Shown here one piece after another: positions 4,125 through 63,072 of a stretch of DNA of 64,000 nt. The stretch spans positions 576,001 through 640,000 of the forward strand of contig CBDDPY010000002.1 of assembly GCA_965232515.1 (NCBI GenBank), written 5' to 3'. A model generated the notes under the pieces. That model did not search any database, was not told where the DNA came from, and saw nothing but the letters and a program-made list of their open reading frames with translations. Position numbers and translations under genes: made by a program. The stretch is from Alphaproteobacteria bacterium. Its GTDB lineage: Bacteria; Pseudomonadota; Alphaproteobacteria; GCA-2731375. Within the stretch, counting starts at the first letter, position 1. Every line of letters begins with the position of its first letter.

Positions 4125-4133
4125 GGCGCCGGC

Positions 4134-5267: not shown

Positions 5268-5293
5268 CGTCAAATGAAGTCGCGCACGCGCCG

Positions 5294-6163: not shown

Positions 6164-6367
6164 TCAGCGTCTCCTATTGCCTGGAGGCTTCCCCGAGAGA
6201 GTCTGCATTTATGGGAATCGATATTGCGATTCACTGCCCTCTTAGGCGCGAGCATTCCACAGGCATCGCGAGCCCGCACCCAATTTCTTGTGGCAAGCTA
6301 GCGAGACCATTGTCGTCGTCTTTGCCGACTTGCGCCGGCGGGACGGTATCAGAGCCTGGGCATGGCC

Positions 6368-8268: not shown

Positions 8269-8383
8269 CCGTTGCCTCCCAACGCGACCTGCAGCCGCCT
8301 CTATAGCTAACCCAAGCCGTAAGACGGGGCTATCCGAAGATTGCGACATCTTGCTAGGGTTCGGCCGCAACAGGAGTTGGGCA

Positions 8384-43500: not shown

Positions 43501-43991
43501 AAAGTGCGCCCGACCAGGGAGCCTGCTTCACCATTCGTCTGCCCAGCAGTCAGCGCGCGCGCCGGGATGCCGAAGCGCCGAAGCAGCCGGCGCCGGTGTC
43601 GGTGGCGGCCAGGGTCCTGATCGTCGACGACGAACCGGAAGTCGTGACGATGTTGTCGGACATCCTGGCGGTCGACGGCCACGACGTCGCCGTTGCCGCC
43701 TCCGGAAATGCGGCCCTGAAGCTGACCCGCGAATTCGAGTTCGATGCAATTCTGAGTGACATCCGGATGCCGGATCTGGACGGTCCCGGCTTCTACGAGG
43801 CGTTGCGCCAGGAGGCGCCGCAGACTGTGGGCCGGCTCGCATTCATTACCGGTGATGCTCTGGGACAGTCAGTGCAGCAATTCCTGTCCGAAACCGGCGC
43901 ACGCTGCCTGGAGAAGCCGTTCTCGCCGGACGAGATCCGCCAGCTCGTCGCCGATATCGTCGCCAAGACGTACGCCGGCGCGGCCGAATGA
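40596..43991 (+). CDS. Hybrid sensor histidine kinase (2TM-HAMP-multiple PAS-HisKA-HATPase-REC)
   Basis: DELGALGRSF HAMP, several PAS domains, AGVAHELNNPL, DSGPG, FFTTK, GTGIGL, LIVDDE, DIRMP, KPF. Confidence 0.93.
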   Translation: MRNLQTGLIRRIGDIRLRPALAIGLIIGLSLPIAVSVWRDVTERRTTHLAHLDQDHERIVQTLAIGMQTPIWDVRPETGKPLIDTLMLDERITGITVSAPLLPDFLAAKQEVAAGGEILTRRAEVVRNGETIGRVEVAMSTAQLEAEVGQQWRQVLATGFMQLALGLLILLPLLRLKVLEPIDRLVGQSRALASGVLDEPTAWRQRDELGALGRSFEEMRGSLRRLFQNLEKRNLALQERENELERNSNMLRAILENMTDGITLVDSELRVLAWNDRLVDILGTPRELMQEGVSLEEVTRLDLLANGVAPDELPQRLQKLRDSFRPGIATTYRVRTASGRDIDIRRRPLDDGCYVSTYTDVTDEVAAQQQAEDTLSLLETVMDAVPAMLHVKGADLRYEMANRRYLDYCGQDQADVIGRVNADIFPEGVTAKADRLDRLVRETRRQLPFYEATYAGIGGEPLTFWTTKLPLLGADGEVSHILTVEIDISERKHAEQERQRWLQLFQDAIQSMPNGFAVYDADDRLVTCNSAYADLYDTEPMRLVGVDIDTLIGRASPGIRSVNGREVTSDDMSSVQRVKKAWFAQSEPLEVEMQDGRWLLMSRHATAEGGFVAIRTDISDLKRMQEALRESEALIRRVLESSPVPVGMTRAADGKMIYESPASKRLLGRDAPGAESRSAIEHFVNDADRRQVFSLLQRTHAVDDFEMRLRKVDGTEFWGAVSARLISYQDDEVIVYSIIDLTERRVVEAEISRQREALHQSEKLNALGGLLAGVAHELNNPLSVVVGQSQLLEETVEDPSIRQRAAVIGKSANRCSRIIKTFLAMARQSAPERKDVDINDVIWSALDVMGYALRSADVELSCELADDPPPVWGDADQLTQVAMNLIVNAEQAMVSQAAPRKLALTTMYDAESDEVCIAVQDSGPGIPSELRKRIFEPFFTTKDVGAGTGIGLAVSRGIVEAHKGEITLESAPDQGACFTIRLPSSQRARRDAEAPKQPAPVSVAARVLIVDDEPEVVTMLSDILAVDGHDVAVAASGNAALKLTREFEFDAILSDIRMPDLDGPGFYEALRQEAPQTVGRLAFITGDALGQSVQQFLSETGARCLEKPFSPDEIRQLVADIVAKTYAGAAE

Positions 43992-44581
43992 GCTCGGACG
44001 GCGGTCCGGATCTGATCCTGACGCCGTTCTATTACCTGCGCCACGGCGAAACGGATTGGAACAGGGCGGGTCTGGCGCAGGGGAGGACGGATGTGCCGCT
44101 GAACGAGCGGGGGCTGGCGCAGGCCGAGGCCGCGCGACCGGCGTTGTCGACCTGCGAAATCGCAACGATCTGCTGCAGCCCGCTCGCCCGTGCCCGTCGT
44201 ACGGCCGAGATCGTCGGCCGCGATATTGCCGCGGAGATCTTTGTCATTGATGACCTGGCCGAATGCTGCTGGGGCGATGCCGAGGGGCAGCCGAAGGGCA
44301 AATGGTTCGCTGACTGGCTGGGCGGCGTCAATCAGCCGAACGCCGAATCCTATGCATCCTTCATGGCGCGGGCCCTGGCCGGATTGAACACGGCGCTACG
44401 CCACCCCGGCCCGGTCCTGATCGTCGGTCATGGCGGAGTCTATTGGGCGGTGCAGCAGCATGGTCGCCTCGACGCCGACGCCGATATCCCGAATTGCCTG
44501 CCTGTCCGCCACGATCCGCCGGTCGACGGATACCCCGGCTGGACCACGCATTTGGTCGGCCGGCGGAACGGTTCAGGCTAG
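43988..44581 (+). CDS. Histidine phosphatase family protein
   Basis: LRHGETDWN, SPLARA, VGHGG; ATGA overlap with the kinase gene. Confidence 0.9.
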   Translation: MSSDGGPDLILTPFYYLRHGETDWNRAGLAQGRTDVPLNERGLAQAEAARPALSTCEIATICCSPLARARRTAEIVGRDIAAEIFVIDDLAECCWGDAEGQPKGKWFADWLGGVNQPNAESYASFMARALAGLNTALRHPGPVLIVGHGGVYWAVQQHGRLDADADIPNCLPVRHDPPVDGYPGWTTHLVGRRNGSG

Positions 44582-45738
44582 CGAATGACGTGCGGCACGA
44601 ACCGCGACAGGTCACGGGTGACGACGCTCTTGTCCTCGCGGATGCCGATGCCGCAGGGCTGGTTGCCGATCATCCAGGAGCCGATCACCGTATAATCGTC
44701 GCCGAAACGGGGCACGGCATGAAAGGCTTGCACGATATGGCCTTCCTCTCCGTATTCGCCGTCCACGACGATGGTCTCGGCGCCGGCGCGATGCACCTCG
44801 ATGTTGGCGCCTTCGCGAGAGAACAACGGCTTGCGGACATAGTCGGCGCCGAGCTCACTCGCCCGCGCGTCGCCATCAAAAAACGCCGGCAGCAGGTTGG
44901 GATGGCCCGGAAACGCCGCCCATAGCAGCGGCAGCAACCCCTTGTTCGACAGCAGGGCCTTCCATGGCGGCTCGATCATGAAGGTCTTGGCCCGTGGAAG
45001 ATTGGGACCATAGGCCTCGCGGAACATCATTTCCCAGGGGTAGAGCTTGAACAAATAGTCGATGACGATGCTCTCGCTGTCGGCGAACCGGCCGTCGGCA
45101 TCGAGACCGATATCTTCGACATAGACGAAGCGGGGCAGGAGGCCGGCCTGCTTGGCGCAGTCTTCCAGATAACGCACCGTCTGCCGGTCTTCGTCGGTGT
45201 CCTTGCAGCTCGCGAAATGCACCGTCGCCCCGGCCTCGAATATCTCCGCAAGACGTTCGACAAGACGGTCCTGGATCGAGTTGAACTGGTCGCTGTCCGC
45301 AGGCAGGCGTCGGGCTTCGATGTTCTGCTCAAGCCATACCCACTGAAAGAATGCGCTTTCATACAGCGCCGTCGGCGTGTCGGCGTTGTACTCGAGCATC
45401 TTCGCGGGACCGATCCCGTCATAGAGCAGGTCGAACCGGCCATAGAGCGACGGGTCCCGATCGCGCCAGGATGTCGCGATCCAGTCCCAGTAGATTTCTG
45501 GAATCGCCAACCGGCGAAGGCGCGCCTCGTCGTTGACAACCTGCTCGACGACCGCCAGGCACATGGCGTGCAGCTCTTCGGTCGGATCTTCCAGATCCCG
45601 CTCGATTTCCTCGAGCGTGAACTGATAGAACCGCGTTTCGTCCCAGTACGGCTCGCCATACATGGTGTGGAAGATGAAGCCGAGTTTTTCGGCCTGTTGC
45701 TTCCAATCCGGCCGCTCGTCGCAGTCGACGCGGAGCAT
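44578..45738 (-). CDS. yjfC: Glutathionylspermidine synthase family ATP-grasp protein (YjfC/YgiC)
   Basis: YWDE, LYGRFD, EYNADTPT, DQFNS, FKLYPWE, EPPWK, KPLFSREGAN, GIRED. Confidence 0.93.
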   Translation of the reverse strand: MLRVDCDERPDWKQQAEKLGFIFHTMYGEPYWDETRFYQFTLEEIERDLEDPTEELHAMCLAVVEQVVNDEARLRRLAIPEIYWDWIATSWRDRDPSLYGRFDLLYDGIGPAKMLEYNADTPTALYESAFFQWVWLEQNIEARRLPADSDQFNSIQDRLVERLAEIFEAGATVHFASCKDTDEDRQTVRYLEDCAKQAGLLPRFVYVEDIGLDADGRFADSESIVIDYLFKLYPWEMMFREAYGPNLPRAKTFMIEPPWKALLSNKGLLPLLWAAFPGHPNLLPAFFDGDARASELGADYVRKPLFSREGANIEVHRAGAETIVVDGEYGEEGHIVQAFHAVPRFGDDYTVIGSWMIGNQPCGIGIREDKSVVTRDLSRFVPHVIR

Positions 45739-45749
45739 CGCCGGGACCG

Positions 45750-46427
45750 CTATTTCAGGCTTGCCAGGATATCATCGACGCTTTCGCTGTCCGTCCCGAT
45801 GCCAGCGGCCGCCAGCTTGTCATCCAGGTCCGAGCCCGTGCGGGCGGCCTCGATCTCGGCCGCGGCGTCCATCCGGGCGGCGCGGGCGGCTTGCTTTTCC
45901 TTGATGCGGGAGAGGGAATCGGCCGCGCTGCCCAGGCGGCTGTCGACACCGGCATGCTGCGATGCGACGGCGGACTGCGCTGCTTGCACGGCCTCCGTCG
46001 CCTTCACGGACTCGACCTCCCGTTTCAGGCCCTCGATCTTGGCTTCGGTCTGCTTGATGGCCGCGGCCATCGATTTTTCTGTGGCGCTGTACTCATTGAG
46101 CACGCTCTCAACGGCGGTGCGCTGTGTCTTCAGGGTCTTTACGCGTTCGGCCACCTCGCGTGCGAGAGCTTCGTCGCCCTTCCCGAGCGCTTCACGGGCA
46201 GCGCTCAGATACTTTTCGATATCGGCATCGAGCGTCGCGAGTTCGTCCTGCTTGAGCTTGCGCTTTCCGGCCATGTTCGAACGCTCGTCATAGGCGGTTT
46301 TCAAGGCTTGGTCGGCCTCGCGGATTTCCTGGTCGAGAATGCGCAATGCCTGACTATCGGCGATCTGCTCGGCGGTCTCGTTGACGCCACCTTTGACGGC
46401 GGACCAGAGCTTGTTCCAAACGGTCAT
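45750..46427 (-). CDS. yjfJ: PspA/IM30 family protein (YjfJ)
   Basis: Coiled coil; ALRILDQEIREA, LDDKLAAAGI, VDDILASLK; yjf gene context. Confidence 0.9.
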   Translation of the reverse strand: MTVWNKLWSAVKGGVNETAEQIADSQALRILDQEIREADQALKTAYDERSNMAGKRKLKQDELATLDADIEKYLSAAREALGKGDEALAREVAERVKTLKTQRTAVESVLNEYSATEKSMAAAIKQTEAKIEGLKREVESVKATEAVQAAQSAVASQHAGVDSRLGSAADSLSRIKEKQAARAARMDAAAEIEAARTGSDLDDKLAAAGIGTDSESVDDILASLK

Positions 46428-46439
46428 GTCATAGCCTCC

Positions 46440-47090
46440 TTAGGTGGCCGCCTTCGGGCCGATATCGCCGCTGAGGTCGACGGCGTTCTGTCCGATCGTC
46501 CGCAACTCGGTGACAATGCTGGCCAGCGTCGAGCGGGCGCTCATGGAGCCGAACAATTCGTACCATTCGCGGCCGTCGATCGCGGTGATGCCGAGCGCCG
46601 CCAGCGGCAGGTACCGCTTGTGGTTGCGCAGCATCATTGCCTCGAAGCCGTTGGGATCGTCCTGGTCGTCGCGCGGCCAAAGCAGGACCGAGGTCAGGAC
46701 CTGCTCGCCGGAGACCGAGACAAACAGCTGAAGATCGCCCAATTCCTGCATCCTGACGCGCAGGACAGGCTCGGCGCCGGGAATGATGTCCAACGCCATC
46801 TCGCCATCTTCGGTCAGGTCGCCGGACTCAAGGGCTTCCTTGAGGGTGTCGACCCTCCATGGCGTGTCGATTTGTTCCATGGACTCGCTCCAATGTTCTC
46901 GTGGTGGCGCAATCTGAATTGTCGACCCTTCGCGCAACGCCGCCGCCGCCCGGCGGATGACCGGCTGCAGGCCGGCCGGCACCCGCACCTCGCACCGCAC
47001 CAGTCCCTTGCCCTGCTGCCTTTGGAGCCAGCGTTGCTGCCGCGTGAGGTTCGGGCTCGATTTCATATCCAGCGGTTTGGTCACAGGCAT
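46440..47090 (-). CDS. yjfI: YjfI (DUF2170) family protein with basic N-terminal extension (alternative start 47066)
   Basis: GDLQLFVSVSGEQV, LPLAALGI, YELFGSMSARS, ELRTIGQNA. Confidence 0.85.
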   Translation of the reverse strand: MPVTKPLDMKSSPNLTRQQRWLQRQQGKGLVRCEVRVPAGLQPVIRRAAAALREGSTIQIAPPREHWSESMEQIDTPWRVDTLKEALESGDLTEDGEMALDIIPGAEPVLRVRMQELGDLQLFVSVSGEQVLTSVLLWPRDDQDDPNGFEAMMLRNHKRYLPLAALGITAIDGREWYELFGSMSARSTLASIVTELRTIGQNAVDLSGDIGPKAAT

Positions 47091-47097
47091 TGCGGTC

Positions 47098-47166
47098 GCG
47101 TCTCCGGGTACGCTCTATATAATGTAACCGGAGACGCTTGACAAGATTCGATCGACACGTCAACCT
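47098..47166. promoter_or_regulatory. Divergent promoter region with operator-like inverted repeat
   Basis: GCGTCTCCGG (47098-47107) / CCGGAGACGC (47128-47137), extendable inward, around an AT-rich core; TTGACA on + at 47138 overlaps TTGTCA-N17-TATATA on -. Confidence 0.6.
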
Positions 47167-47223
47167 GGGGTTTAGAGAAAAACCGTTAAGGTCCGGCAAC
47201 GCGGCGCGACGGCGAGGCGACTG

Positions 47224-48279
47224 ATGAACGGAAATCGGACATCAACCGTCCTTTGGCATGCCTATCTTTTTGTCGCCGAACTGCGATGGCAGGCCTTGGT
47301 GGCCGTCATTGGCGGACATGCACTGGTTGCATATGTGGGGCTTCGACTCGCAGGTGAGGGCGACCTGACCGGCTGGGTCGATTTCATTTACTTCTACACC
47401 ACGACCGCTTCAACGGTCGGCTATGGCGACCTTTCGCCGTCATCGCCGGCCGGCAGGCTATTCACCGCGATCTGGATTTTTCCAGGTGCGCTGATCATTT
47501 TCACCACGGTCCTGGCCAAGCTCACCACGACCTTCGCCAGCATCTGGAGACGCAGAATGGAAGGCTTCGGAGATTATAGCGGCTTGGACGGAGCCACGGT
47601 GATCGTCGGCCATCATCCCCAGCGAACGCGCCGGATGATCGACGAAATCATTGCCGGCGGCGGCGATTCGGCGCCGGTAATCCTGGTCTCACGCGAAAAG
47701 CCAAACTTTGACGACGAACGCGTTCGCTTCGTGCGTGGGGATACCCTGTCCAACAAACGCGATCTCTTGCGCGCCGGGATTGCGAGCGCCGCGAAGGTGA
47801 TCGTCTATGCCGATGACGACGAGAACACGCTTGCCGCAGCCATGGCGGTCGCGGCCATTAACGATTCAGCCCATCTTGTCGCCTACTTCGGCGACGAGCA
47901 GAAAGCAGAACTTCTGCAGGCCCATACGCGCGCCGTCTGCGTTGTTAGCCAGTCGGCCGAGCTGGTCGTGCGGGAGATGCAGGATCCGGGTGCGTCTCAG
48001 GTAATGACGGCGCTTTCGGCGGCCCGGACCAGCGATACGGTTTATTCGTTCGAAGTTCCGGATGGTTGCGCCGCCGATTACGGTACCCTGTTCGACGCGC
48101 TGCATCGCGAGTTCGGCGCCACGGTCATCGCGCGCGCGGCTGCGAATGGCGGTGAGCCCCAGTTCAACGCAGCGCGTGATGGCGCCTTGAGGAGTGGTGA
48201 TCAGGTTTTCTACATCAGGTCAACGCGCCTGAGCGATCGGGAGATCGGCGCGGCGCTGGCCACGGCACCACGGGGATAG
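47224..48279 (+). CDS. Two-TM potassium channel with RCK/TrkA-N domain
   Basis: TTTASTVGYGD selectivity filter; FVRGD, RAGIASA RCK motifs. Confidence 0.9.
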   Translation: MNGNRTSTVLWHAYLFVAELRWQALVAVIGGHALVAYVGLRLAGEGDLTGWVDFIYFYTTTASTVGYGDLSPSSPAGRLFTAIWIFPGALIIFTTVLAKLTTTFASIWRRRMEGFGDYSGLDGATVIVGHHPQRTRRMIDEIIAGGGDSAPVILVSREKPNFDDERVRFVRGDTLSNKRDLLRAGIASAAKVIVYADDDENTLAAAMAVAAINDSAHLVAYFGDEQKAELLQAHTRAVCVVSQSAELVVREMQDPGASQVMTALSAARTSDTVYSFEVPDGCAADYGTLFDALHREFGATVIARAAANGGEPQFNAARDGALRSGDQVFYIRSTRLSDREIGAALATAPRG

Positions 48280-48280
48280 G

Positions 48281-48919
48281 ATGTTCAAACTGTTCCGAGG
48301 CAAGGGCGATGGCGATAAACCGACGCTGCCGGAGATCCTCAAACTGACGATTGGCCGGACGGCGTTGATCGATGAGATCGCGCTGAAGCTGATCCCCGAC
48401 GACAGTCTGCTTGACGTGCCATCGGCGACGTTGCCGATCGTCGCGCAAGGCACCGCCGACATGGGCGAGGGGGTGACGCTGCATCGCTTCTACCCGGACG
48501 ACGATAGCGTGCTGCTGCAGGTCCTCGGCGGCGACGGTCGTGAAGACCAAACGGTTCAGGAGATAACACTGTTCTTCGTGTTGGATGCTTACTATCCCAG
48601 CGCGGACGCGGATTTCGAGGCTTGGCGGGAGCGCATTCGCCAGACCAGCTTCGATCTGAATGGCACGAATTTCCAACGGGCCTGGTTCGACAATTCGGAC
48701 AAGCCCGAGGATCCGGTCTCGTTCTGGGAAGACGTGTTCGATGACCGGTCGGCCGCCACATCGCGGCGGATCTACCAGACCTGCATGCTGTTTGTCAGGC
48801 GAATCGGTAGCTTCGACGAGTTTCTTTTGGTCAACATGGAAGAGCCAGAGGGGGCCGGCGACCGCTGCGTCAGCCTCATGGTGGGCGTGCCGCTTTCGCC
48901 GAACGCGATCGACGTATAA
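48281..48919 (+). CDS. yjfK: YjfK (DUF2491) family protein
   Basis: LHRFYPDDD, FQRAW, QTCMLFVR, EFLLVNMEE; yjf gene context. Confidence 0.85.
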   Translation: MFKLFRGKGDGDKPTLPEILKLTIGRTALIDEIALKLIPDDSLLDVPSATLPIVAQGTADMGEGVTLHRFYPDDDSVLLQVLGGDGREDQTVQEITLFFVLDAYYPSADADFEAWRERIRQTSFDLNGTNFQRAWFDNSDKPEDPVSFWEDVFDDRSAATSRRIYQTCMLFVRRIGSFDEFLLVNMEEPEGAGDRCVSLMVGVPLSPNAIDV

Positions 48920-53331: not shown

Positions 53332-54972
53332 ATGGGCAGCGAAGACTCGGGCTTCGACTACGACGGCATGCGTGCGGCGTTCAAGCTGGACATGCCGCAG
53401 CACTACAACTTCGCGTTCGACGTGGTGGCGAAGCGCGGCCGCGAGGCTGACAAGGACGCGCTGATCGCGATCGACAAGACCGGCGAGCTGGTCGAACGGC
53501 TCAGCTATTCGGATCTGGATCGGATGTCGAACCGGTTCGCGAACGTGCTGCTTGAGCTCGGCGCCGCGAAGGGCGACTTCGCGCTTGTCGTGATCCCGCG
53601 AATACCGGCCTGGTACCATGTGCTGCTTGGCTGCATGAAGGCGGGCGTTGTGTCGATGCCCGGCACCAATTTGCTGACCGCCAAGGACTTCGAGTATCGG
53701 ATCAATCGCGCTGAGGCGAAGCTCGCGATCGTCACCAAGGAGCATGCGGCCAAGGTCGAGCAGATCCGGCACAACTGCCCCTCGCTCGAGAAGGTGATCG
53801 TGATCGGCGAAAGCCGTGATGGCTGGACCGACTTCGAGACGGCTTGCGCGGACGCCTCCGAAGACGCACCGGAGGTGCCCCCCACCGCCGCCGACGACCT
53901 GATGATGGTCTATTTCACTTCCGGCACCACCTCGATGCCGAAGATGGTGGGGCGGAACTACGGTTATGCATTGGCGCACACCATCACCGCCAATTACTGG
54001 ATGGGGCTCACGCCGGATGACGTGCACTGGACGCTGACAGACACCGGCTGGGCAAAGGCGGCCTGGGGACTGCTGTTTCCCCCGTTGCTGTCCGGCGCCA
54101 CGATCATGCTCTTCGACGGCGAGGGCTTCGACGCCGAGATGCATCTGAAGCTGATCGAGCGTTTCGGGGTAACGACGTTCTGCGCGCCACCGACGATCTA
54201 TCGGGTCTTCGCGCAGATGGACACGGGCCCATTCGACTTGAGCTCGCTGCGGCACTGCATGGGGGCGGGCGAACCGTTGAACCCGGAAGCCATGCGGGCC
54301 TGGAAGGCGGCGAGCGGCTGCGACGTCTATGACGGCTATGGCCAGACCGAGACGGTCAACATCGTCGCCAACTTCCCGGGCATGGAGATCCGGCCCGGCT
54401 CCATGGGCAAGCCGGTGCCGGGCCTCGACGTCGACGTCATCGACGACGACGGCAATATCGTCGGCGATGACGATGTCGGCCATATCGCAGTGCGGATCAC
54501 CGACCCCTATCCGCCGGGTCTGTTCGACGGCTATTTCCGGGATCCGGCGGCGACGGAGCAGTCCTTCCGCAACGATTGGTACTACACCGGCGACACCGCG
54601 ACCCGGGACAAGGACGGCTATCTCTGGTTCGTCGGCCGTTCCGACGACATCATCTCGTCCGCCGGCTATCGCATCAGCCCGTTCGAGGTCGAGAGCGCGC
54701 TGATCGAGCACAAGGCGGTTCTGGAATCGGCTGTCGTCGCCATGCCGGACAAGCTGCGCGGGGAGATCGTGATGGCCTATATCACGCTGGCACCCGGCTT
54801 CGAGGCCTCGGACATGCTGAAGGAAGACATCCAGTCCTTCGTCAAGGAGCTGACGGCGCCTTATAAATATCCCCGCGAGATCGAGTTTCGCGAGGCATTG
54901 CCGAAGACGATCTCTGGCAAGATCCGGCGTGTCGAGTTGCGTGAGGAGGCCCGGCAAAAGGCGCAGGCGTGA
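53332..54972 (+). CDS. Medium-chain acyl-CoA synthetase (ACSM-like)
   Basis: YFTSGTTSMPK, DTGWAK, GYGQTET, YTGD, GRSDD, PYKYPR, PKTISGK. Confidence 0.92.
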   Translation: MGSEDSGFDYDGMRAAFKLDMPQHYNFAFDVVAKRGREADKDALIAIDKTGELVERLSYSDLDRMSNRFANVLLELGAAKGDFALVVIPRIPAWYHVLLGCMKAGVVSMPGTNLLTAKDFEYRINRAEAKLAIVTKEHAAKVEQIRHNCPSLEKVIVIGESRDGWTDFETACADASEDAPEVPPTAADDLMMVYFTSGTTSMPKMVGRNYGYALAHTITANYWMGLTPDDVHWTLTDTGWAKAAWGLLFPPLLSGATIMLFDGEGFDAEMHLKLIERFGVTTFCAPPTIYRVFAQMDTGPFDLSSLRHCMGAGEPLNPEAMRAWKAASGCDVYDGYGQTETVNIVANFPGMEIRPGSMGKPVPGLDVDVIDDDGNIVGDDDVGHIAVRITDPYPPGLFDGYFRDPAATEQSFRNDWYYTGDTATRDKDGYLWFVGRSDDIISSAGYRISPFEVESALIEHKAVLESAVVAMPDKLRGEIVMAYITLAPGFEASDMLKEDIQSFVKELTAPYKYPREIEFREALPKTISGKIRRVELREEARQKAQA

Positions 54973-54985
54973 CGGCGAAGCGGCG

Positions 54986-56131
54986 TCAGGTCAGTGCTTT
55001 TTCGTAGACGCGATAGGTCTTGTAGTGGCGGCAGCCGGCGGATTCGACCAGTCGGCGCATGCCCATATTGTCTTCGAGGATCCAGCTGGCTTCGACCTGC
55101 TTGACGCCGTGCTTGATGCCGCTGGCGCGGATGCGGCTGATGATGGCGCAGGCGAGAGCGGCGCCGACCGGCGTGCGGTGATAGGCCCGGCGCACGCCCA
55201 TCAGCGGCACGCGCGCCGTCGCCACCGTGCCGAACTTGAGCCGCCATAGGAGCTTGGCCCAGCCAAACGGAAGCAGTTTTCCGTTCAAATCGCGGATGGC
55301 CTCGTTCAGGTTTGGCAGCCCCACCATCATCGCCGCCGGCGTTCCGTCGACGTCGGCAATGCAGACGAAGTCGTCGCGTAGCAGCGGCTTCAGCTCTTTC
55401 GCCACGTGCTGGATCTCGTCCTCGTCGAAGGGCACGAAGCCCCAGTTGTCGGACCAGGCGTCGTTGAAGATGTCCATGATGACCGAGATATCGCGGGCGT
55501 AGTTGGCGCCGGTCAGGCAGCGGACGACGATTTTGTGGCTGGCCTTGGCCTTCTCGGCCATGGTCTCAACGAAGGCCGGCAATGGTTTGGAAAAGTCGTA
55601 CAGATAAGCCAGCAGATCCTTGGCCTTGGCATAGCCCTGCCGTTCGATCCTGTCGCCATAATAGGTCGGCGCGTGCCCCATCATCATGAACGGCGCCGTG
55701 CCGAAGCCGTCCACGAGCAAGCCGGATTCGTCATTGATCGACAGCGAGAAGGGGCCGCGTACGCGCCGCATGCCGTGGGCCCGTAACCAGTCTTCGGCGG
55801 CGTTGAACAACGCGTTGAAAACGGCGGGGTCGTCCTCCGCCTCGAAAAAGCCGAAATGGCCCGTCGCGTCGTCGTGCTGCGCAAGAGACATCCGGTCGAT
55901 CTGCGCGCTGATGCGACCGACCGGCGCGCCGTAGCGCCGGGCAAGCCAGAACGCCGTCTCGGCATGGTTGAAGAAAGGGTTGGCCTTGCGGTTCAGATGG
56001 CCACGACGTTCGAATTCAAGTGGCGCGACCCAGTTTGGATCGGTCCTGTAAACGCGCCTGGGCATTGCAATGAAGCTATTCAGCGACGCGCTGTCGTCAA
56101 CCGGCTCGACCGTTAGACCGTCATCGCTCAC
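54986..56131 (-). CDS. GNAT-fold N-acyltransferase, bacterial ceramide synthase (bCerS/YghO)-like
   Basis: DPNWVAPL, NPFF, GRISAQID, GHFGFFE, GPFSLSINDESGLLVDGF, FNDAWSDNWGFVP, ARVPLMGV, SWILEDN; GTG 56131 overlaps the upstream TGA. Confidence 0.8.
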   Translation of the reverse strand: MSDDGLTVEPVDDSASLNSFIAMPRRVYRTDPNWVAPLEFERRGHLNRKANPFFNHAETAFWLARRYGAPVGRISAQIDRMSLAQHDDATGHFGFFEAEDDPAVFNALFNAAEDWLRAHGMRRVRGPFSLSINDESGLLVDGFGTAPFMMMGHAPTYYGDRIERQGYAKAKDLLAYLYDFSKPLPAFVETMAEKAKASHKIVVRCLTGANYARDISVIMDIFNDAWSDNWGFVPFDEDEIQHVAKELKPLLRDDFVCIADVDGTPAAMMVGLPNLNEAIRDLNGKLLPFGWAKLLWRLKFGTVATARVPLMGVRRAYHRTPVGAALACAIISRIRASGIKHGVKQVEASWILEDNMGMRRLVESAGCRHYKTYRVYEKALT

Positions 56132-57753
56132 AGCTCGCCGACCTCGAGCGATCGTGCGATGGCGCGTCGCCGCAGCTTGCCGCTGGACGTTTTCGGCAGG
56201 GTGTGCGGATCGACAAACCGGATCTGATCGACATCCATGCCGCGGTGTTTCAACGCGGACTGGATGCGCTCGGCCAACTCGGGCCGTCGGTCGGATTTCA
56301 GGCGGGTCTCGGCCACCAGAACGGCGTGTTCGGTGCTGCGCTGTTCGTTGCGGATGCCGACCGCCGCGACGCCACCAGGTCGGACGCCGTCGACATCGGC
56401 CGCGATCTGTTCGACCACGGACGGGACCAGGTTGCGCCCGGCGCGGATGATCAGTTCCTTCTGTCGCCCGGTCACGTAGAGATCGCCGTCGGCGACATAA
56501 CCGAGATCCCCGGTTCTCAGCCAATCCCCGTCGAAGGCCTCTTCCGTCGCCTCGGGATCGTCGTAATAGCCGGTCATGCCCGATGCCGTGCGCACCATGA
56601 TCGGGCCGACGATCCGCTCCTCGGCTTCGCCGCCAGCGCCGTCGTCGATCCGTAGTTCGACACCGGCGATCGGACGGCCGACGCTGGTGAACGCCAGCGC
56701 ATCTTCGGCATCGCTTGTTGCCGCTTGTCCCTGTCTTGCCAGGACGGCGGCCGATACCCGGTCGACCCTCGGCGGCTGCGCGGGCGCGGCGAACGTGGCG
56801 GCGACGGTGGCTTCCGCCAACCCATAGACGGGAAGAAAAGCCGATGCCCGAAAACCGCATTGTTCGAACCCGTTCGCGACGCGATGCAGAACGTTGGGCG
56901 CGATCGGCTCGGCGCCGACCATGGCGCAACGCAGGTCGCCGAAGTCGAGCTGGTCGGACGCGGCACGCCGCGCGAAGCGGTCAATCAACGCATAAGCCGA
57001 TGGCGGGCCGACCGTGTGGGTCGCCCGAAACGCGGAGACCGAACGCAGCCACAGGTACGGGTTCCGCCGGAAATCCAGCGGCGACATCAGATTCACGACG
57101 AAGTCGTTGTAGTACGGATAAAGCAGACCGCCGATCAGGCCCATGTCGTGATGCAGCGGCAGCCAGCTGACGCCGACCGCATCATCTCCTGGCGGCAGGG
57201 CCTGGCTGATGGCGGCGAGATGCGCGAGTAGCCGATCGTTCGGAATGACGACGCCGCGCGGTGTGGCCACGCTGCCGCTGGTCAGTTGAATCAGATCGGT
57301 TCGCGTTGTTGCGGGGTTTGTTGCCGCCGCTGCTTCCGACAGGTCTTCGGCGATCACGACCGGTGGCGTTGCGGTCATTTCGATGTGGGCCGCCACCTCG
57401 CGGCCGACGGCGGCCAGTTTCACGTCGAAACGATCGGCGACCTCCCGAAAATGGGCGTTCAAACCGGCAATATCATCGAGCCGAAACGGCCGCCCGATCT
57501 GGATCGGCACGCCGCCGGCCGTCCAGATTCCGAACAGGGTGGCGACGGCTGGCCGCGAATGCGGCACCATGGCCAGCACATTTTGTCCCGGGCGCAGACC
57601 GGCGTCCCGCAGCCCACCGGCAACCCGCCGCGCCGTCTGCCAGAACTCGGCCCATGTCCAGGACTGCCAACCATCCGCCGCGTAAAAGCGGATTGCCAGT
57701 CTGTCCGGATCCCGTTCGGCGCGCTGCCGCAGGAGATCGACCAGCGAGGTCAT
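56128..57753 (-). CDS. Fatty acyl-AMP ligase (FAAL) / acyl-ACP synthetase
   Basis: QLTSGS, VSWLPLHHDMGLIG, GAEPI, YGLAEAT, WLRTGDLG, GRQKELII, PKTSSGK; ATG 57753 in a TAATG overlap. Confidence 0.9.
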   Translation of the reverse strand: MTSLVDLLRQRAERDPDRLAIRFYAADGWQSWTWAEFWQTARRVAGGLRDAGLRPGQNVLAMVPHSRPAVATLFGIWTAGGVPIQIGRPFRLDDIAGLNAHFREVADRFDVKLAAVGREVAAHIEMTATPPVVIAEDLSEAAAATNPATTRTDLIQLTSGSVATPRGVVIPNDRLLAHLAAISQALPPGDDAVGVSWLPLHHDMGLIGGLLYPYYNDFVVNLMSPLDFRRNPYLWLRSVSAFRATHTVGPPSAYALIDRFARRAASDQLDFGDLRCAMVGAEPIAPNVLHRVANGFEQCGFRASAFLPVYGLAEATVAATFAAPAQPPRVDRVSAAVLARQGQAATSDAEDALAFTSVGRPIAGVELRIDDGAGGEAEERIVGPIMVRTASGMTGYYDDPEATEEAFDGDWLRTGDLGYVADGDLYVTGRQKELIIRAGRNLVPSVVEQIAADVDGVRPGGVAAVGIRNEQRSTEHAVLVAETRLKSDRRPELAERIQSALKHRGMDVDQIRFVDPHTLPKTSSGKLRRRAIARSLEVGEL

Positions 57754-58685
57754 TACCGGGCGTCGGGAACGGCCCAGTGTTGGGGATTGCTGCCGCTGTG
57801 TCCCTTGGCGGCGAGGATCATGTATTCGAGCGCCGTACGCCGGGCGAACGAGGTTCGGCCGACCGTCATGTAGCATTGCAGCAGGCGTGCAAAACCGGGC
57901 GCCAAGGCCTCGATCCGGGCCCGGTTGCGGCGGATGTTGTCGATCCAATCGGCGACCGTGCGCACGTAGGAGGCCGTCATGTCCTCGACCAGCCGGACGT
58001 CCAGGCCCGCCTGACCCATGAGCTCGAGTTCTTCCGGCAGCGACATCAGGCGGCAATAACCCATCGCCTTCGAGAGGATGTAGTCGGTCGCGTTGCTGTC
58101 GCGCGGGCCGCGGGTTTCGGTCGGAAAATAGCAGTCGGAGATCAACATCCGGCCGCCCGGACGAAGGATGTCGCCGACCCACCGATGGATGGTCTCGCGG
58201 TTATGCATATGGACGATGCTGCCACAGAAGATGACGGCGTCGACCGACTCCGGCGCGAGGTCGAGATCTTCGATGTGCTGCAGGTCGACCGTTATGCGGT
58301 CCGCGACGCCACGCGCCTCGGCGCGTTCCAGCAAAACCTCGCGCTGGCGCTCGCTCAAGGTGATGCCATGAAAGATGCCGTCGGTCTGGGCGGCCAGGTT
58401 CAACATCACGCTGCCCCAGCCGCAACCGACGTCGAGCACCTTTTCGCCCGGCTTGATCTGAAGCAGGTTCCGGAAGTGCTTGAACTTGCGGGTCTGCGCA
58501 GTTTCGAGATCGTCGTCGTCGTCGAGATAGATGCCGGTCGAGTAGGCGAGCTGACTGTCCAGGACGAGGGAGAAGATCTCCGGATCGTGTTCGTAGTGGG
58601 CCGCAACTTGTTCACGCTCGAAGCCGCGCTGCTCGTCCGGCGATCGCCGTAACGCGGCTTGCTCGATCGGTGTGCGCGCTTCCAT
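57753..58685 (-). CDS. CFA/CMAS family SAM-dependent lipid methyltransferase
   Basis: VAAHYE, LDSQLAYS, LETAQTRK, VLDVGCGWG, GITLSERQ, SYVRTVADW; TGATG overlap with the ACP gene. Confidence 0.85.
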   Translation of the reverse strand: MEARTPIEQAALRRSPDEQRGFEREQVAAHYEHDPEIFSLVLDSQLAYSTGIYLDDDDDLETAQTRKFKHFRNLLQIKPGEKVLDVGCGWGSVMLNLAAQTDGIFHGITLSERQREVLLERAEARGVADRITVDLQHIEDLDLAPESVDAVIFCGSIVHMHNRETIHRWVGDILRPGGRMLISDCYFPTETRGPRDSNATDYILSKAMGYCRLMSLPEELELMGQAGLDVRLVEDMTASYVRTVADWIDNIRRNRARIEALAPGFARLLQCYMTVGRTSFARRTALEYMILAAKGHSGSNPQHWAVPDAR

Positions 58686-58966
58686 CAGTGTTTCGCCGCC
58701 GCCATCTGTTCGAGCACCACGTCGACAAGATCGTCGACCACCTTGGGATCGCGCGCTTCCATTTCATCGACGTCCAGCATGGTGATGCCAAACCGTTCCT
58801 CGATCGCGACCTGCGTTTCGATGAGCGCCATCGAATCGATGCCGAGGTCGTTGTCCAAACCGGTCTTCGTCGTGACGGAGGTGCGTGGGATATTCAAAGT
58901 GGTGGCGATAATCTCGCACACCGCGGTGGCGACCGACTCCCTGTCGGCAATCGTATCGGTATTCAA
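58685..58966 (-). CDS. Acyl carrier protein
   Basis: Acidic 93 aa; DLGIDSM phosphopantetheine site, IEERFGI; TTG start after GAGGG. Confidence 0.88.
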   Translation of the reverse strand: MNTDTIADRESVATAVCEIIATTLNIPRTSVTTKTGLDNDLGIDSMALIETQVAIEERFGITMLDVDEMEARDPKVVDDLVDVVLEQMAAAKH

Positions 58967-59016
58967 GAGATGCCCTCTTCTCAGCCCGCCGTCGACGTGT
59001 AACGAACGGAGAGTGT

Positions 59017-59045
59017 CTTATCGCCGTTGGTCGGAAACCTGTCAA
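59017..59045 (-). promoter_or_regulatory. Putative sigma70 promoter of the ACP operon
   Basis: Minus strand TTGACA-N17-GATAAG, about 50 bp upstream of the ACP start. Confidence 0.45.
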
Positions 59046-59073
59046 CGACACCGGAGATGGGCGGCCGGGCGGC

Positions 59074-62000
59074 TCAGGTCAATTCGCCAAGCTGATTTCG
59101 TGCGTCGATGAGGTCGGGCGAAGACCGTCCTTCGGTGAGGTGGTCGTAGATTGGCCATAGCAGATCGTAGGCCTCGGCGCGCCGGTCCTGGCGCTGCAGA
59201 TGGCGGGCAAAACTGGTCGCGGTTCGCAGTTCCAGGGTCCTTGAATGCTGCCGTCCCGCGACGTCGAGGGCTTGTTTGAAGCAGGATTCGACGGCGCCGT
59301 TGCCGTTCGCCGGCGTCATGCTCAGCAGGTTGCCCTTGACCCGGTAAAGCTCGGCTTCGAACCAGCGTTCTCCGTTTTCGGCCGTCACCGTTTCGGCTTC
59401 GTCCAGAACGCTCAGGCCTTCCTCAACCCGATCGGCCTGACCCAGGGCCTCGGCCAGTCCGCTCAGGAAGATCGGCCGCCAGAGTCGGGCATAACCCGTC
59501 GAATCGAGCGCCGTTAGCCCGTGCTGCATCGCCTTGATGCCGTCAGGAAGATTGCCCTGCTGACAGATCGCCCAGCCCTGGCAGACGCCGGCGACTGCAG
59601 ACCAGTGCATCAAGTCCTGTTCAACCGCGAGCGAGATCAACGATTCGGCATGCGATTTCACCTGCTCCCAATCGCGACAGAACGCCTGCAGCATGATGCC
59701 CGCGTGCGATATGGCGATGCCGAGCGTATTCGCATGCGATAGCGCCTGGGCTTGGTCGATAGCCTGCTGGCCGTTTTCCTGCGCGCGATCGTAATGACCG
59801 AGATGCCAGAGCGTCCATGAGAGGTAGCAGAGCCCGGCGACGTAGCCGGATTGAAAGGTGATGGATCGCTGTTCGGCCGGCACGCGGTGTTCGGTCGCGC
59901 GTTTCAAATGGCTGTGCGCCAACTCGAGCTCACCGGCCATCAGCAGGGAGGTGCCCAGCATGCGGTTGCCGGCGAGCAGCGCGGCATCAGATTTCTGGTG
60001 CTCTGCCAGCCGAAGAAACTCTTCCGCCAGCGCGCGCGACTTCTCGGTTTCGCCGCGCCCATAGTGGAATACCCAGCGCCCGTTCAGAACGGGAAAGAAC
60101 TTCGCCGTGTCGCCGACCCGGCGACACAGCTCGAGCGCCCGCGTGAACGTCCGCTCCAGTTGCGGCGAGGTATAGCCGGCCGACGATACGATCGGCTCGG
60201 TTAGGGCGATCTGCAGATCGAGTTCCAGGGCGTCGCGCTCGCCGCTCTCCGGCAAGTCGTTCAACAGCTCCAGCGCCTTCGTCAGGTGCGCGACCGCCTC
60301 GGCATTGGCCGACCGTTTCGTTGCCCGCTTGCCGGCATGCTGCCAGTAGTGGATCGCACGGTCGGCCAGCCCGGCCTCCGTGAAATGATGCGCCAGGACT
60401 TCGGGTTCCTGTTTGACCTGCTCGGGGAACTGGTCCTCGAAGGTTCGTGCGATCGCCTGATGATAACGCTGCCGCGTGCTTTTCAGCAGTGACTCGTAGG
60501 CGGCATCACGCACAAGCGAGTGTTTGAACTCGAACCTCGCGTTTGCCGGCGGACCGCGCCGGTAGATCAACTCGGCGTCCACCAGCTGCGCCAGGGCGTC
60601 GTCAAGCTCGCGCTCGTCATAAGCCGAAACGGCGGCCAGGACTTCGCGCGTAAACGTCCGTCCGAGCGTTGCGGCGAGCTGGGCCAGCTGCTTGACCGGC
60701 GCCAGCCTGTCGAGCCGCGCCATCAGCGAATCCTGCAGTGTCGTCGGCACTTGCAGCTTCAGCAGCGGACGCGCCGAATCCCGGCTCCCGTCCGGACTTG
60801 GAACCCAGCCGGATTCGATCACCGTCTTCGTCAGCTCCTCGACGAACAGCGGCACGCCGTCCGTCTTGGCGATGATCTGATCGAGGACTTCCACCGGTAG
60901 TCGACGGTTGCGCGTCAGTCGTTCCACCATCTTCGCGCACTCGCCCCGCTCCAGTCGGCTGAGCGGCACGTAGGTGACATGGTCGAGGCCTTGCCAGTGT
61001 GGTTTGTATTCCGGGCGGAACGTGATCAGGACCAGCGCCCGCACGTGCCGCGCGCGATCGACGATCAGGTCCAGCAATTCCTGGGTCGTCGGGTCGATCC
61101 AGTGCGCATCCTCGAACACGATCAGCACGGGCTGCTGCACCGCCAGGGTCTTCAGCTGTTCAGCGATGACCGCGAAGGTCATCTCCTTCTGGCGTTTGGG
61201 ATCGAGCTTCAGCTCGGGGTAGCCATCGCCGGTCGGCACCGAAAGCAGCGACGCGATCAGCGGCAACACCTGATCGCGCGCGGCGCCGGCGTTCGACAGC
61301 AGCGTTTCGAGTTTTCTGAGCTTGCGTTCCGGCGGATCGTGCGCTTCGAACTGAGCCGCGTGGCTGAGCTGGTTGACCAGCGGGTAGAGCGCGCTGTTGA
61401 TGTGATGCGGCGAGCATTGATAGCGCAGCCTTTGTTGCGGCTGGTCGCCGATCTTCTCGCGCAGGGCCTGCGTAATGCGTGACTTGCCGATGCCGGCTTC
61501 GCCCGATAGCAGCACGACCTGTCCCTTGCCGTCTTTCGCCCGCTGCCAGCAGTCGTGCAGCAGATCGACTTCCTTTTGACGGGCGATAAACGGCGTCAGA
61601 CCGCGGGCGTGGCGCGCTTCGAAGCGGCTGGTCAGCCGATGCTCGCCCAAAACGTTCCAGGCCTGAACCGGCTCACTAAAACCTTTCAACACATGGTGGC
61701 CCAGATAGACGCTGTCGAAGGCTTCGCCGATCAACAGGCGGGTCCGCGGCGCGATCAGAACCTGTCCGGGCGCGGCCCTGGCCTGCAATCTGGCGGCGAG
61801 ATTGGGCGTTTGGCCGACAATGTCTTCGGACGGCGCGTCGCTGGTCCCGACGGTGTCGCCGACCACGACGACACCGCTGGCAATCCCGATCCGGGCGGCC
61901 AGTGGCGTGCCATCGGGATCGGCAAGCTCGGCGACCGCGGCCGCCATCGCCAGTCCCGCACGCACGGCGCGCTCGGCATCGTCCTCATGAGCCCGCGGCC

Positions 62001-62418
62001 AACCGAAATAGGCCTGCACGCCATCGCCGACGTATTTGGCGACGTGCCCGTCGAAACGCCGGACAATGGCGCCGCAGGCACTGAGGTACCGATTCATCAG
62101 TTTTGACAGGTCTTCCGGGTCGAGCTTGACCGAGAGCGCCGTCGACCCCACCAGGTCGCAGAACAGCACGGTCAGATGACGTCGCTCCGGCTCGATCCAG
62201 CCCGGCTCCGAGGCGGCCGGTTCGTCGGTCGACGCGGAAAGTTGGGCAGCTTCCGCAAGCAGTCGTTTTCGGTGGCCCAACGACGAAACGCCAATTTCCT
62301 TCAGGTCCGAGTCGGTCAGCGTTGGCAGCAGCGCCATATCGATATGGTTTGCCGCGAAGGCATCGGCGTAGTCGCCGAGACCCAGATACTCCAGCCAGGA
62401 CGTCACCTCGCCCGACAT
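59074..62418 (-). CDS. SAM - class III adenylate/guanylate cyclase - AAA/STAND ATPase - TPR protein
   Basis: SAM WLEYLGLGDY...LGHRKRLL; LFCDLVGST, KYVGDG, NLAARLQ; Walker A GEAGIGKS; FEDAHWID; helical C-terminus. Confidence 0.92.
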   Translation of the reverse strand: MSGEVTSWLEYLGLGDYADAFAANHIDMALLPTLTDSDLKEIGVSSLGHRKRLLAEAAQLSASTDEPAASEPGWIEPERRHLTVLFCDLVGSTALSVKLDPEDLSKLMNRYLSACGAIVRRFDGHVAKYVGDGVQAYFGWPRAHEDDAERAVRAGLAMAAAVAELADPDGTPLAARIGIASGVVVVGDTVGTSDAPSEDIVGQTPNLAARLQARAAPGQVLIAPRTRLLIGEAFDSVYLGHHVLKGFSEPVQAWNVLGEHRLTSRFEARHARGLTPFIARQKEVDLLHDCWQRAKDGKGQVVLLSGEAGIGKSRITQALREKIGDQPQQRLRYQCSPHHINSALYPLVNQLSHAAQFEAHDPPERKLRKLETLLSNAGAARDQVLPLIASLLSVPTGDGYPELKLDPKRQKEMTFAVIAEQLKTLAVQQPVLIVFEDAHWIDPTTQELLDLIVDRARHVRALVLITFRPEYKPHWQGLDHVTYVPLSRLERGECAKMVERLTRNRRLPVEVLDQIIAKTDGVPLFVEELTKTVIESGWVPSPDGSRDSARPLLKLQVPTTLQDSLMARLDRLAPVKQLAQLAATLGRTFTREVLAAVSAYDERELDDALAQLVDAELIYRRGPPANARFEFKHSLVRDAAYESLLKSTRQRYHQAIARTFEDQFPEQVKQEPEVLAHHFTEAGLADRAIHYWQHAGKRATKRSANAEAVAHLTKALELLNDLPESGERDALELDLQIALTEPIVSSAGYTSPQLERTFTRALELCRRVGDTAKFFPVLNGRWVFHYGRGETEKSRALAEEFLRLAEHQKSDAALLAGNRMLGTSLLMAGELELAHSHLKRATEHRVPAEQRSITFQSGYVAGLCYLSWTLWHLGHYDRAQENGQQAIDQAQALSHANTLGIAISHAGIMLQAFCRDWEQVKSHAESLISLAVEQDLMHWSAVAGVCQGWAICQQGNLPDGIKAMQHGLTALDSTGYARLWRPIFLSGLAEALGQADRVEEGLSVLDEAETVTAENGERWFEAELYRVKGNLLSMTPANGNGAVESCFKQALDVAGRQHSRTLELRTATSFARHLQRQDRRAEAYDLLWPIYDHLTEGRSSPDLIDARNQLGELT

Positions 62419-62535
62419 GCGTTCCCTCACGATGTGGCCGAATCGATGCTATCAAAAAGACCGCTGTCCGACCTTCGAAAACCTCGAATATCTTGCGTCG
62501 TTCATGAACGATCGAGTTGACTTGAATTGGTTGAT

Positions 62536-62611
62536 TGGTGCCGGCGGCAGGAGTCGAACCCGCGACCTACTGATTACAAATCAGTTGCTCTACCAGCTGA
62601 GCTACACCGGC
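62536..62611 (-). tRNA. tRNA-Thr (anticodon TGT), CCA encoded
   Basis: GCCGGTGTAGCTCAGCTGGTAGAGCAACTGATTTGTAATCAGTAGGTCGCGGGTTCGACTCCTGCCGCCGGCACCA, 76-nt cloverleaf. Confidence 0.97.
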
Positions 62612-62760
62612 AATATTGCGCGCTTACGCCTGTAAACCCGCTGCGGTGATATCCCAGATTGACCACCACCGCCAAGAGAGAAGTTGCGCCCGCGGCGTTA
62701 CCGAACGTCAATCTTGCCATGCGACAAAAGCCCGTCGGATAACGCCGAACGGGGGACGGG

Positions 62761-63072
62761 GTGAGGGAGTATCGGGGGCTTCGCCGCATCTGGGCGATCT
62801 TTAGCATCTGTTGGTGTGTCCTGGTGGTCACGGGCGCTTTGGGCATCCAGAGCCGCGACCGGACCGACCTGGCTGGTGTTCGCGCCGAGATGCCGCTGTC
62901 CGGGTCCTTGGCGCCGCAGCATGTCGAATACCGCGCGCCGTCAATCGTCGCGACGATGTTCATCGCGGTCGCGTTTCCGGCCGCGCTGTTTCTCTTCGGT
63001 ATTGGCTACATCCGCTATTGCCGGCCGCGATATGCGGCCATGCCGCGCCTGACCGTCGATCGGCAGCAATAG
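62761..63072 (+). CDS. Small hypothetical two-TM membrane protein
   Basis: GTG start after GGGGGA; two hydrophobic segments. Confidence 0.5.
   Translation: MREYRGLRRIWAIFSICWCVLVVTGALGIQSRDRTDLAGVRAEMPLSGSLAPQHVEYRAPSIVATMFIAVAFPAALFLFGIGYIRYCRPRYAAMPRLTVDRQQ

Follow-up and report, generated by a model that had tools for sequence, protein, structure and literature searches.

In Caulobacter, the published sphingolipid region runs from aasR (CC_1165), cerR (CC_1164), acpR (CC_1163) and spt (CC_1162) through the kinase and CDP-alcohol enzymes CC_1160/1159 and LptF2/G2 (CC_1156/1155) to the ceramide synthase gene cerS (CC_1154) and the nucleotidyltransferases CC_1153/1152 (PMC11324152, PMC9393093). 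AasR, a ligase of the fatty acyl-AMP ligase (FAAL) type, and AcpR, a dedicated acyl carrier protein (ACP), supply Spt with acyl-ACP in Alpha-, Beta- and Gammaproteobacteria (PMC9386255, PMC11324152). Carrier proteins supply lipid chains in other systems as well. In Pseudomonas fluorescens MYb115, the polyketide synthase (PKS) and alpha-oxoamine synthase SgaAB form a non-canonical supply line for sphingolipids (PMC12134224). On the way to fischerazole in Fischerella, the FAAL FshA is described to load the free-standing ACP FshE, and FshF, a relative of cyclopropane fatty acid synthases (CFAS), methylates the ACP-tethered cis-unsaturated chain, yielding a vinyl branch together with some cyclopropane; the genes also include one for a desaturase, FshD (PMC13548996). 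In a 64,000-nt stretch (the window) of the genome of a soil-type alphaproteobacterium, 7.39 Mb in 4 contigs, we found genes for a FAAL, an ACP and a CFAS-like methyltransferase (MT) overlapping one another and a second, paralogous member of the bacterial ceramide synthase (bCerS) family, hereafter bCerS2. Judged from sequence, the chances are about even that this is an accessory ceramide-diversifying operon, in which a modified acyl-ACP would supply bCerS2 to give a modified ceramide, with the canonical Spt and CerR of the genome being used.

The four genes in question are co-directional minus-strand open reading frames (ORFs) at 54986-58966. Coordinates here and below refer to the window unless C2 is stated.

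58966-58685, minus strand: ACP; 93 aa, TTG start; Pfam PP-binding, 1.6e-09
58685-57753, minus strand: CMAS-type MT; 310 aa; Pfam CMAS (PF02353), 3.9e-42, model positions 6-266 of 273
57753-56128, minus strand: FAAL; 541 aa from the ATG in TAATG; AMP-binding (PF00501), 1.2e-49
56131-54986, minus strand: tandem-GNAT protein bCerS2; 381 aa from the GTG in GTGA; sole Pfam match a weak, sub-threshold one to Acetyltransf_1, 0.0016

Neighbouring genes overlap by 1 or 4 nt at all three junctions of the four-gene operon, the overlaps, read on the reverse strand, being TGATG at 58687-58683 (ACP/MT), TAATG at 57755-57751 (MT/FAAL) and GTGA at 56131-56128 (FAAL/bCerS2). A preliminary description of the stretch had reported four such minus-strand genes, a CMAS enzyme among them; its coordinates and overlaps proved correct, and the PF02353 match extends over nearly the whole model. 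All four genes have the same length in the congeneric locus L001 (genome G001), and the ratios of nonsynonymous to synonymous substitution rates (dN/dS) relative to L001 are 0.20 for ACP, 0.09 for MT, 0.16 for FAAL and 0.14 for bCerS2. Equal lengths combined with dN/dS values of this size indicate that all four are real genes under selection; for the GNAT gene they rule out a decaying copy.

By positional orthology in a Caulobacteraceae genome, the fourth gene is a member of the bCerS/CerS family (CC_1154, CCNA_01212). In the Phenylobacterium (Caulobacteraceae) locus L067, Spt, a gene of no family, a kinase and a CDP-OH transferase are followed, further along, by two LptF/G genes, a GNAT and an NTP transferase; this order corresponds gene by gene to the published one from CC_1162 to CC_1152, with the GNAT in the position of cerS. 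We sampled 80 genome loci of the family, with a family alignment and clustered ORFs. bCerS2 is 47-60% identical to the family members of 79 of them, and most of these have canonical sphingolipid neighbours. Across the 80 loci, the neighbours include NTP_transf_3 (56 loci), LptF/G-like permeases (52 and 54), metallophosphoesterase (47), DAGK_cat (42), FA_hydroxylase (36), a CerR-like NAD-dependent epimerase (33), an Spt-like class I/II aminotransferase (30), FAAL (28), CDP-alcohol phosphatidyltransferase (CDP-OH transferase; 25) and a small ACP-sized protein (24). Moreover, the bCerS2 clade (five members) keeps 83 of the 84 columns in which 84 canonical-type homologues show a conservation of at least 90%, the exception being P146, which is replaced by A. 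In a quick maximum-likelihood tree of 89 rows, bCerS2 forms a clade with L001, P0001, P0002 and P0004 (support of 100 in the Shimodaira-Hasegawa-like approximate likelihood ratio test, SH-aLRT). This clade nests among alphaproteobacterial canonical sequences on a stem of ordinary length (0.31), and the tree contains no supported sister relation between it and the genome's own canonical bCerS. Loci, tree and conserved columns thus agree in placing the GNAT within the bCerS clade, as had been supposed in the preliminary description. The AlphaFold2 (AF2) model of bCerS2 (pLDDT 87.6, pTM 0.86) has a tandem-GNAT fold. Its best PDB fold matches are tandem GNATs (7q3a, 4.7e-15; 2wpw; MshD, 1ozp), and it resembles MAB_4324, the clavulanate tandem GNAT and mycothiol synthase; a search by sequence found no solved relative. 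A predicted ACP-bCerS2 complex scored 0.11 (mark 0.32), a value with no bearing for or against. The family has at least 8000 homologues, labelled 'hypothetical', 'GNAT' or, wrongly, 'dATP pyrophosphohydrolase'. The label 'DNA-binding transcriptional regulator' is also found, and the family is without a Pfam or NCBIfam model of its own, showing weak PF00583 matches only.

The window contains no Spt or CerR homologue, so bCerS2 is not linked to spt and cerR; according to a published account, such linkage of ceramide synthase genes is not obligatory (PMC11334938). The absence of Spt and of the reductase, which had been taken as a property of the system, therefore holds for the window and fails for the genome. 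Both genes were found at C2:5.89 Mb, where the genome has its only strong Spt/CerR matches. They belong to a complete canonical locus (L167, C2:5886900-5899700), located 5.25 Mb from the window and arranged in the published Caulobacter order. Its aasR-like FAAL passes the cut-off of NF006624 (780.9 bits against 600) and its Spt that of the equivalog NF047599 (618.5 bits against 500). The remaining genes encode a CerR-like epimerase, an AcpR-like ACP, a 297-aa protein of no family, a DAGK_cat kinase, two LptF/G-like proteins, a fatty acid hydroxylase, the first bCerS (C2:5897766-5898893, 60% identical to bCerS2) and an NTP transferase. Since the genome has a canonical bCerS in a full locus, the gene in the window is a second, paralogous copy. 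Among 60 relatives, bCerS-family genes were present in the congeneric G001 only, which has both copies; none were found in the 31 genomes of the family other than G001. Thus, bCerS2 is like the canonical enzyme in homology, conserved columns, fold class and locus position, and the genome has the whole canonical locus. Unlike it, bCerS2 is detached from spt, cerR, the head-group and the transport genes, and is translationally coupled to a FAAL-ACP-MT set that is part of no described sphingolipid locus.

These data bear directly on the possibility that bCerS2 uses the modified acyl-ACP to N-acylate an amino acid, a lyso-lipid or a polyamine, producing an amide lipid that is not a sphingolipid and does not depend on Spt. 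Spt and CerR do lie outside the operon, and tandem GNATs acylate many amines, the nearest folds being those of MshD, a glucosamine N-acetyltransferase and a histidine acyltransferase. However, the retained columns and the nesting of the clade in canonical bCerS on an ordinary stem argue for the same substrate class. Moreover, the genus is the only one in its family found with sphingolipid genes, and both its genomes carry both copies. We therefore regard a non-sphingolipid product as highly improbable. Of the two products proposed preliminarily, a modified ceramide is much likelier than a new Spt-independent N-acyl lipid, since Spt, a CerR-like protein and the first bCerS are all encoded in the genome.

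A second bCerS-family gene is also present in other Alphaproteobacteria. Among 400 of them sampled, 51 have the family and 3 of the 51 have two matches. In two of these three genomes, stop/start overlaps connect the second copy with preceding genes for a type I PKS and an Spt-like oxoamine synthase:

L185 (G769:C14:266500-283500), 9-9069: PKS with AT-DH-MT-ER-KR-ACP domains, cut at the locus edge
L186 (G1054:C6:3600-20800), 4-9171: PKS with AT-DH-MT-ER-KR-ACP domains, cut at the locus edge

The second copies in G769 and G1054 are 35-40% identical to bCerS2. Both clusters are SgaAB-like with a bCerS-family third gene added; the passages of the SgaAB paper considered here mention no ceramide-synthase-like third gene (PMC12134224). 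The clusters parallel the arrangement in the window, which is unlike SgaAB in having neither PKS nor oxoamine synthase, its supply line being FAAL-ACP-MT. Recruitment of bCerS copies to carrier-protein supply lines thus recurs, and this favours a real coupling in the window operon as well.

What kind of supply line the window encodes can be judged from its individual parts. The third gene is a FAAL, as indicated by its nearest relatives, which are FAALs, and by the ACP gene two genes upstream. Of the 19 PDB matches with E values of at most 1e-20, the 18 best are to FAALs or to loading domains of the FAAL type. The closest structures are 3pbk (5.5e-67), 7r7e-g, 3kxw and FadD23/32/28; residues 143-530 align to residues 168-554 of 3pbk with no net difference in length. 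In NCBIfam, the best matches are FAAL/long-chain ligase subfamilies, all below their cut-offs (NF005850, 371.4 against 572; NF006624, 330 against 600). The ACP has its phosphopantetheine serine in a GIDSM motif, D44 and S45 being invariant in 16 aligned ACPs of the cassette described below. The preliminary description named a dedicated ACP and an acyl-ACP synthetase as parts of sphingolipid loci; the ACP and FAAL of the window are not of this type. Identity between the window FAAL and the AasR-like FAAL of the genome is 30%, and 36% with a third FAAL encoded there; the ACP shares 30% with the AcpR-like ACP over 40 aa (E 1e-04). These figures rule out duplicates of aasR and acpR. Unlike AasR and AcpR, to which they are not orthologous, the window FAAL and ACP belong to a cassette family of soil bacteria.

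The same figures matter for an alternative in which the acyl-ACP made by these enzymes feeds the canonical Spt, so that the methyl modification ends up in the sphingoid base, which bCerS2 then N-acylates as an isozyme. Such a long-chain-base route has precedents: in Rhodobacteria, Spt is reported to prefer acyl-ACP from a dedicated ligase (PMC9386255, PMC11324152), and cyclopropane-bearing sphingoid bases are described in Sphingomonas (PMC2444003). In addition, a second synthase with the same conserved core suits a changed amine as well as a changed donor. On the other hand, the window ACP and FAAL are only distantly similar to the AcpR- and AasR-like proteins, the genome has its own aasR-acpR pair beside spt, and the translational coupling of the FAAL is with bCerS2 and not with Spt. 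On balance, we consider this route unlikely, though it is an alternative to be taken seriously.

The methyltransferase (METHYLTRANSFERASE) consists of the catalytic domain only; full-length CFA synthase models match it from about position 98-118 onwards. Its best PDB match is CFAS 5z9o (8.1e-25), with 7qos and 6bqc also matched, and the GCGWG motif for binding S-adenosylmethionine (SAM) is present. In its full-length CMAS domain match and this motif MT is like CFAS and the mycolic acid enzymes (6bqc, 5z9o, CmaA1, PcaA, MmaA1-4), and with the latter it also shares a length near 300 aa and the lack of an N-terminal domain. Its scores fall far below every NCBIfam equivalog cut-off (best 126.6 against 600 for NF053839; 81.8 against 390 for mycolic_MTase). 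The difference from CFAS concerns the active site, where C139, E239, H266 and Y317 are reported to bind bicarbonate and to be strictly conserved in non-plant cyclopropane synthases (PMC3132707). Comparison with the enzymes of E. coli (EcCFAS) and L. acidophilus, with 7qos and with the genome's own paralogues shows that MT has T50, V158 and S183 in place of EcCFAS C139, E239 and H266; Y317 is kept as Y202. The three replacements are invariant in an alignment of 23 MT orthologues, whereas C, E and H are all present in two CFAS paralogues encoded in the genome. With these bicarbonate-site residues replaced, it is doubtful that MT makes a canonical cyclopropane. The preliminary wording, according to which the enzyme "methylates or cyclopropanates" the chain, is thus backed as far as the logic of methyl transfer is concerned, but questionable in its second half. 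The genome also encodes a third full-length CFAS paralogue, own_cfa3 (C2:1057313-1058647), which has S and Q at the positions of C139 and H266 and keeps E239. The same substitutions at C139 and H266 are reported for cotton enzymes (PMC3132707), and the product of own_cfa3 may differ from plain cyclopropane.

Gene neighbourhoods of MT orthologues indicate that ACP-MT-FAAL forms a conserved cassette of its own in soil bacteria. Orthologues 61-71% identical to MT come from Sorangium, Nannocystis, Nannocystaceae, Myxococcaceae, Acidobacteria and many soil metagenomes. We fetched 80 metagenome loci, of which the 76 with an MT of at least 50% identity form the base of the cassette counts. In loci reaching far enough, an ACP lies immediately upstream of MT in 31 of 42, and a FAAL 44-51% identical to that of the window immediately downstream in 40 of 54. 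Elsewhere the cassette lies near genes for an NmrA-like protein, for a PlsC-type acyltransferase, or for a thiolase accompanied by a hydrolase and another CMAS. Consistent with an olefin substrate, a membrane fatty acid desaturase (PF00487) is encoded directly after the FAAL in 5 of 15 loci, two of these being identical contigs:

L104:6319-7233, desaturase
L152:2125-3039, desaturase
L115, L119 and L121, desaturase

At E 1e-8, the genome containing the window yielded no orthologue of this desaturase. The cassette is thus like the fischerazole system in combining a FAAL, a free-standing ACP and a CFAS-family MT and, elsewhere, in having a desaturase as a frequent fourth gene (PMC13548996). The likeness is one of gene content, and the two differ in destination: in Fischerella the acyl-ACP goes to a PKS and nonribosomal peptide synthetase (NRPS) for a lipopeptide, while in the window the next enzyme is a ceramide synthase paralogue. 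As to origin, an MT orthologue was found in G001 alone among the 60 relatives, and a sample of 400 other Pseudomonadota yielded none; the genus has therefore probably acquired the cassette horizontally. Five 'delta proteobacterium'/Desulfobulbaceae genomes with canonical loci and 301 genomes of the phylum of G460 contained no MT orthologue either. Composition, with a flat G+C content (GC) of 0.61-0.66, shows no sign of a transfer of the cassette.

The constancy of these neighbours is informative about the substrate of MT. The fungal sphingolipid C9-methyltransferase belongs to the same superfamily, and phospholipid CFA synthases act on assembled lipids; by analogy, MT might methylate a finished ceramide or sphingoid base. 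However, the constant partners of the MT group are ACP and FAAL, with no match to Spt, CerR or GNAT in the 76 metagenome loci, and MT is without the N-terminal domain of the phospholipid CFA synthases. FshF, moreover, is described as acting on acyl-ACP (PMC13548996). This explanation is the least probable of those considered here.

Under the reading of the locus as an accessory ceramide-diversifying operon, the FAAL would adenylate a free, probably unsaturated, long-chain fatty acid and load it on the dedicated ACP. MT, being CFAS-like, would then transfer the methyl carbon of SAM to the ACP-tethered chain, which might become methyl-branched or gain a methylene, vinyl or cyclopropyl group. Next, the canonical Spt would provide a sphingoid intermediate for N-acylation by bCerS2, which would use either the modified acyl-ACP or the acyl group after hand-over, and the canonical CerR and head-group enzymes would finish the lipid. 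The result would be a second ceramide species with a methyl-modified amide-linked chain. ACP loading followed by methyl transfer was already part of the preliminary description, and this logic is backed by the conserved ACP-MT-FAAL cassette and the fischerazole precedent.

Several observations weigh against this reading. A 2022 study in Nature Chemical Biology reportedly found that canonical bCerS uses acyl-CoA, and bCerS2 bears no sequence sign of a switch to acyl-ACP, only one conserved column being different. For MT, which has no equivalents of C139, E239 and H266, even the type of reaction is uncertain. Where the metagenome sequence continues for 900 bp or more past the FAAL, as it does for 15 cassettes, no GNAT follows; the cassette evidently needs no bCerS. 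Only close relatives showed the four-gene fusion (G001/L001, 86-92%; P0001, P0002 and P0004, 83-89%), so its conservation is not independent evidence of a functional link. Gene-order conservation, a premise of the earlier account, is accordingly a matter of the ACP-MT-FAAL part, which is widely kept, and not of the whole, which is limited to the same genus. Evidence for expression has limits of its own. In three RNA-seq libraries of one study, contigs are 95-99% identical on the operon, with one run covering 30 of 30 bins and a contig at 55723-56335 spanning the FAAL/bCerS2 junction; runs X2, X4 and X3 cover the operon stretch partly (15, 12 and 3 of 30 bins), uncovered bins carrying no meaning. 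These contigs prove neither transcription nor a single transcript and provide no strand or level. Finally, the promoter is the weakest item of the preliminary description. The TTGACA that it named is present, as part of the following putative element:

59045-59017, minus strand: promoter-like stretch; TTGACA at 59045-59040, 17-nt spacer, GATAAG at 59022-59017

A sigma-70 consensus scan of 54700-59300, however, called no promoter (0 found, 1.0 expected in shuffles). The only terminator-like site found by a terminator scan is on the opposite strand, within the FAAL gene, and was disregarded.

An alternative is that there is no functional coupling at all, bCerS2 being a redundant or differently regulated copy that happens to lie behind an independent, horizontally acquired cassette feeding other lipids. 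The cassette does occur elsewhere without a GNAT and with varied neighbours, the fusion is confined to one genus, and the conserved columns of bCerS2 are almost unchanged. Against this stand the GTGA overlap between FAAL and bCerS2 together with the tight packing of the four genes, the purifying selection acting on all of them, and the second bCerS copies joined to a PKS-ACP and an Spt-like synthase in two other Alphaproteobacteria. We therefore judge the absence of coupling to be distinctly unlikely, and continue to favour an accessory ceramide-diversifying operon.

The features upstream of the operon are as follows:

59074-62430, minus strand: STAND-type signalling protein; 1118 aa; Pfam SAM_1, Guanylate_cyc, AAA_16, TPR_12
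62536-62611, minus strand: tRNA-Thr (TGT), some 105 bp upstream of the cyclase gene, the 3' end of the tRNA pointing to the cyclase-cassette-bCerS2 block

The STAND-type gene lies directly upstream of ACP in the same direction, as it also does upstream in the congeneric L001; its product scores 592.7 bits with TIGR03903 (TOMM_kin_cyc), under the cut-off of 705.75. A kinase- or cyclase-headed AAA_16-TPR protein is encoded upstream of the cassette in 10 of the 20 metagenome loci with at least 2.5 kb upstream. Examples beside the cassette, headed by a Ser/Thr kinase or adenylate cyclase, are L098:3926-7666, L129:3873-7544 and L103:357-3815. The recurrence of STAND proteins beside the cassette suggests a conserved regulatory or sensing link, and the cyclase-AAA-TPR protein of the window is a probable regulator or sensor linked to the cassette; the operon might be switched on through it. 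Elsewhere in the genome, at C2:5529547-5549244, the third FAAL, a kinase-like match and a protein paralogous to the cyclase-AAA-TPR protein (42% identical) are encoded within 20 kb, which may be another STAND-plus-FAAL pairing.

An Rfam search over 54000-63000 found the tRNA only and no riboswitch. In a genomic-island test near tRNA-Thr there was no integrase and no att-like direct repeat, with GC flat at 0.61-0.66, and island origin of the block is a possibility only. The gene downstream of the operon, in convergent orientation, encodes an MbcS-like acyl-CoA synthetase; its orthologues in three genomes of other genera of the family have no common flanks or tRNA. Other neighbours in the window (a molybdopterin oxidoreductase, an AraC regulator and a PspA cluster) have no relation to lipids. 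The last of these, at 43988-48919, comprises a histidine phosphatase, a glutathionylspermidine synthase-like protein, PspA/IM30, DUF2170, a K+ channel with TrkA-N, and DUF2491, and is adjoined by the gene for a large hybrid histidine kinase rich in PAS domains (40596-43991). The cluster resembles an envelope-stress module and seems to have no connection with the operon.

Overall, the parts of the operon are of known kinds; their combination is new and so far confined to one genus. The literature searched contained no bCerS gene joined to FAAL-ACP-methyltransferase and no bCerS paralogue, with the proviso that supplementary tables of the bCerS and fischerazole papers may list some. More tentatively, and with clearly less than an even chance of being right, bCerS2 may depend on acyl-ACP and install a chain remodelled by a bicarbonate-independent, FshF-like relative of CFAS, which would make its product an undescribed class of ceramides. 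The cassette may, more generally, be a widespread, STAND-wired lipid-tailoring unit of soil bacteria that can be plugged into varied acyltransferases. To our knowledge, the fischerazole module, which the cassette resembles, is the only such module studied so far. The cassette, with an MT in which the bicarbonate site is absent, is common in soil metagenomes and present in named myxobacterial genomes. The mislabelling of the bCerS family in databases, in turn, hides sphingolipid capacity in genome surveys. Bacterial ceramide synthesis was elucidated only recently, and little work has addressed where the amide-linked chain comes from and how much it varies. A second ceramide synthase beside a loading and methyl-tailoring line would thus provide a case for studying sphingolipid diversification and acyl-ACP donors of bCerS.

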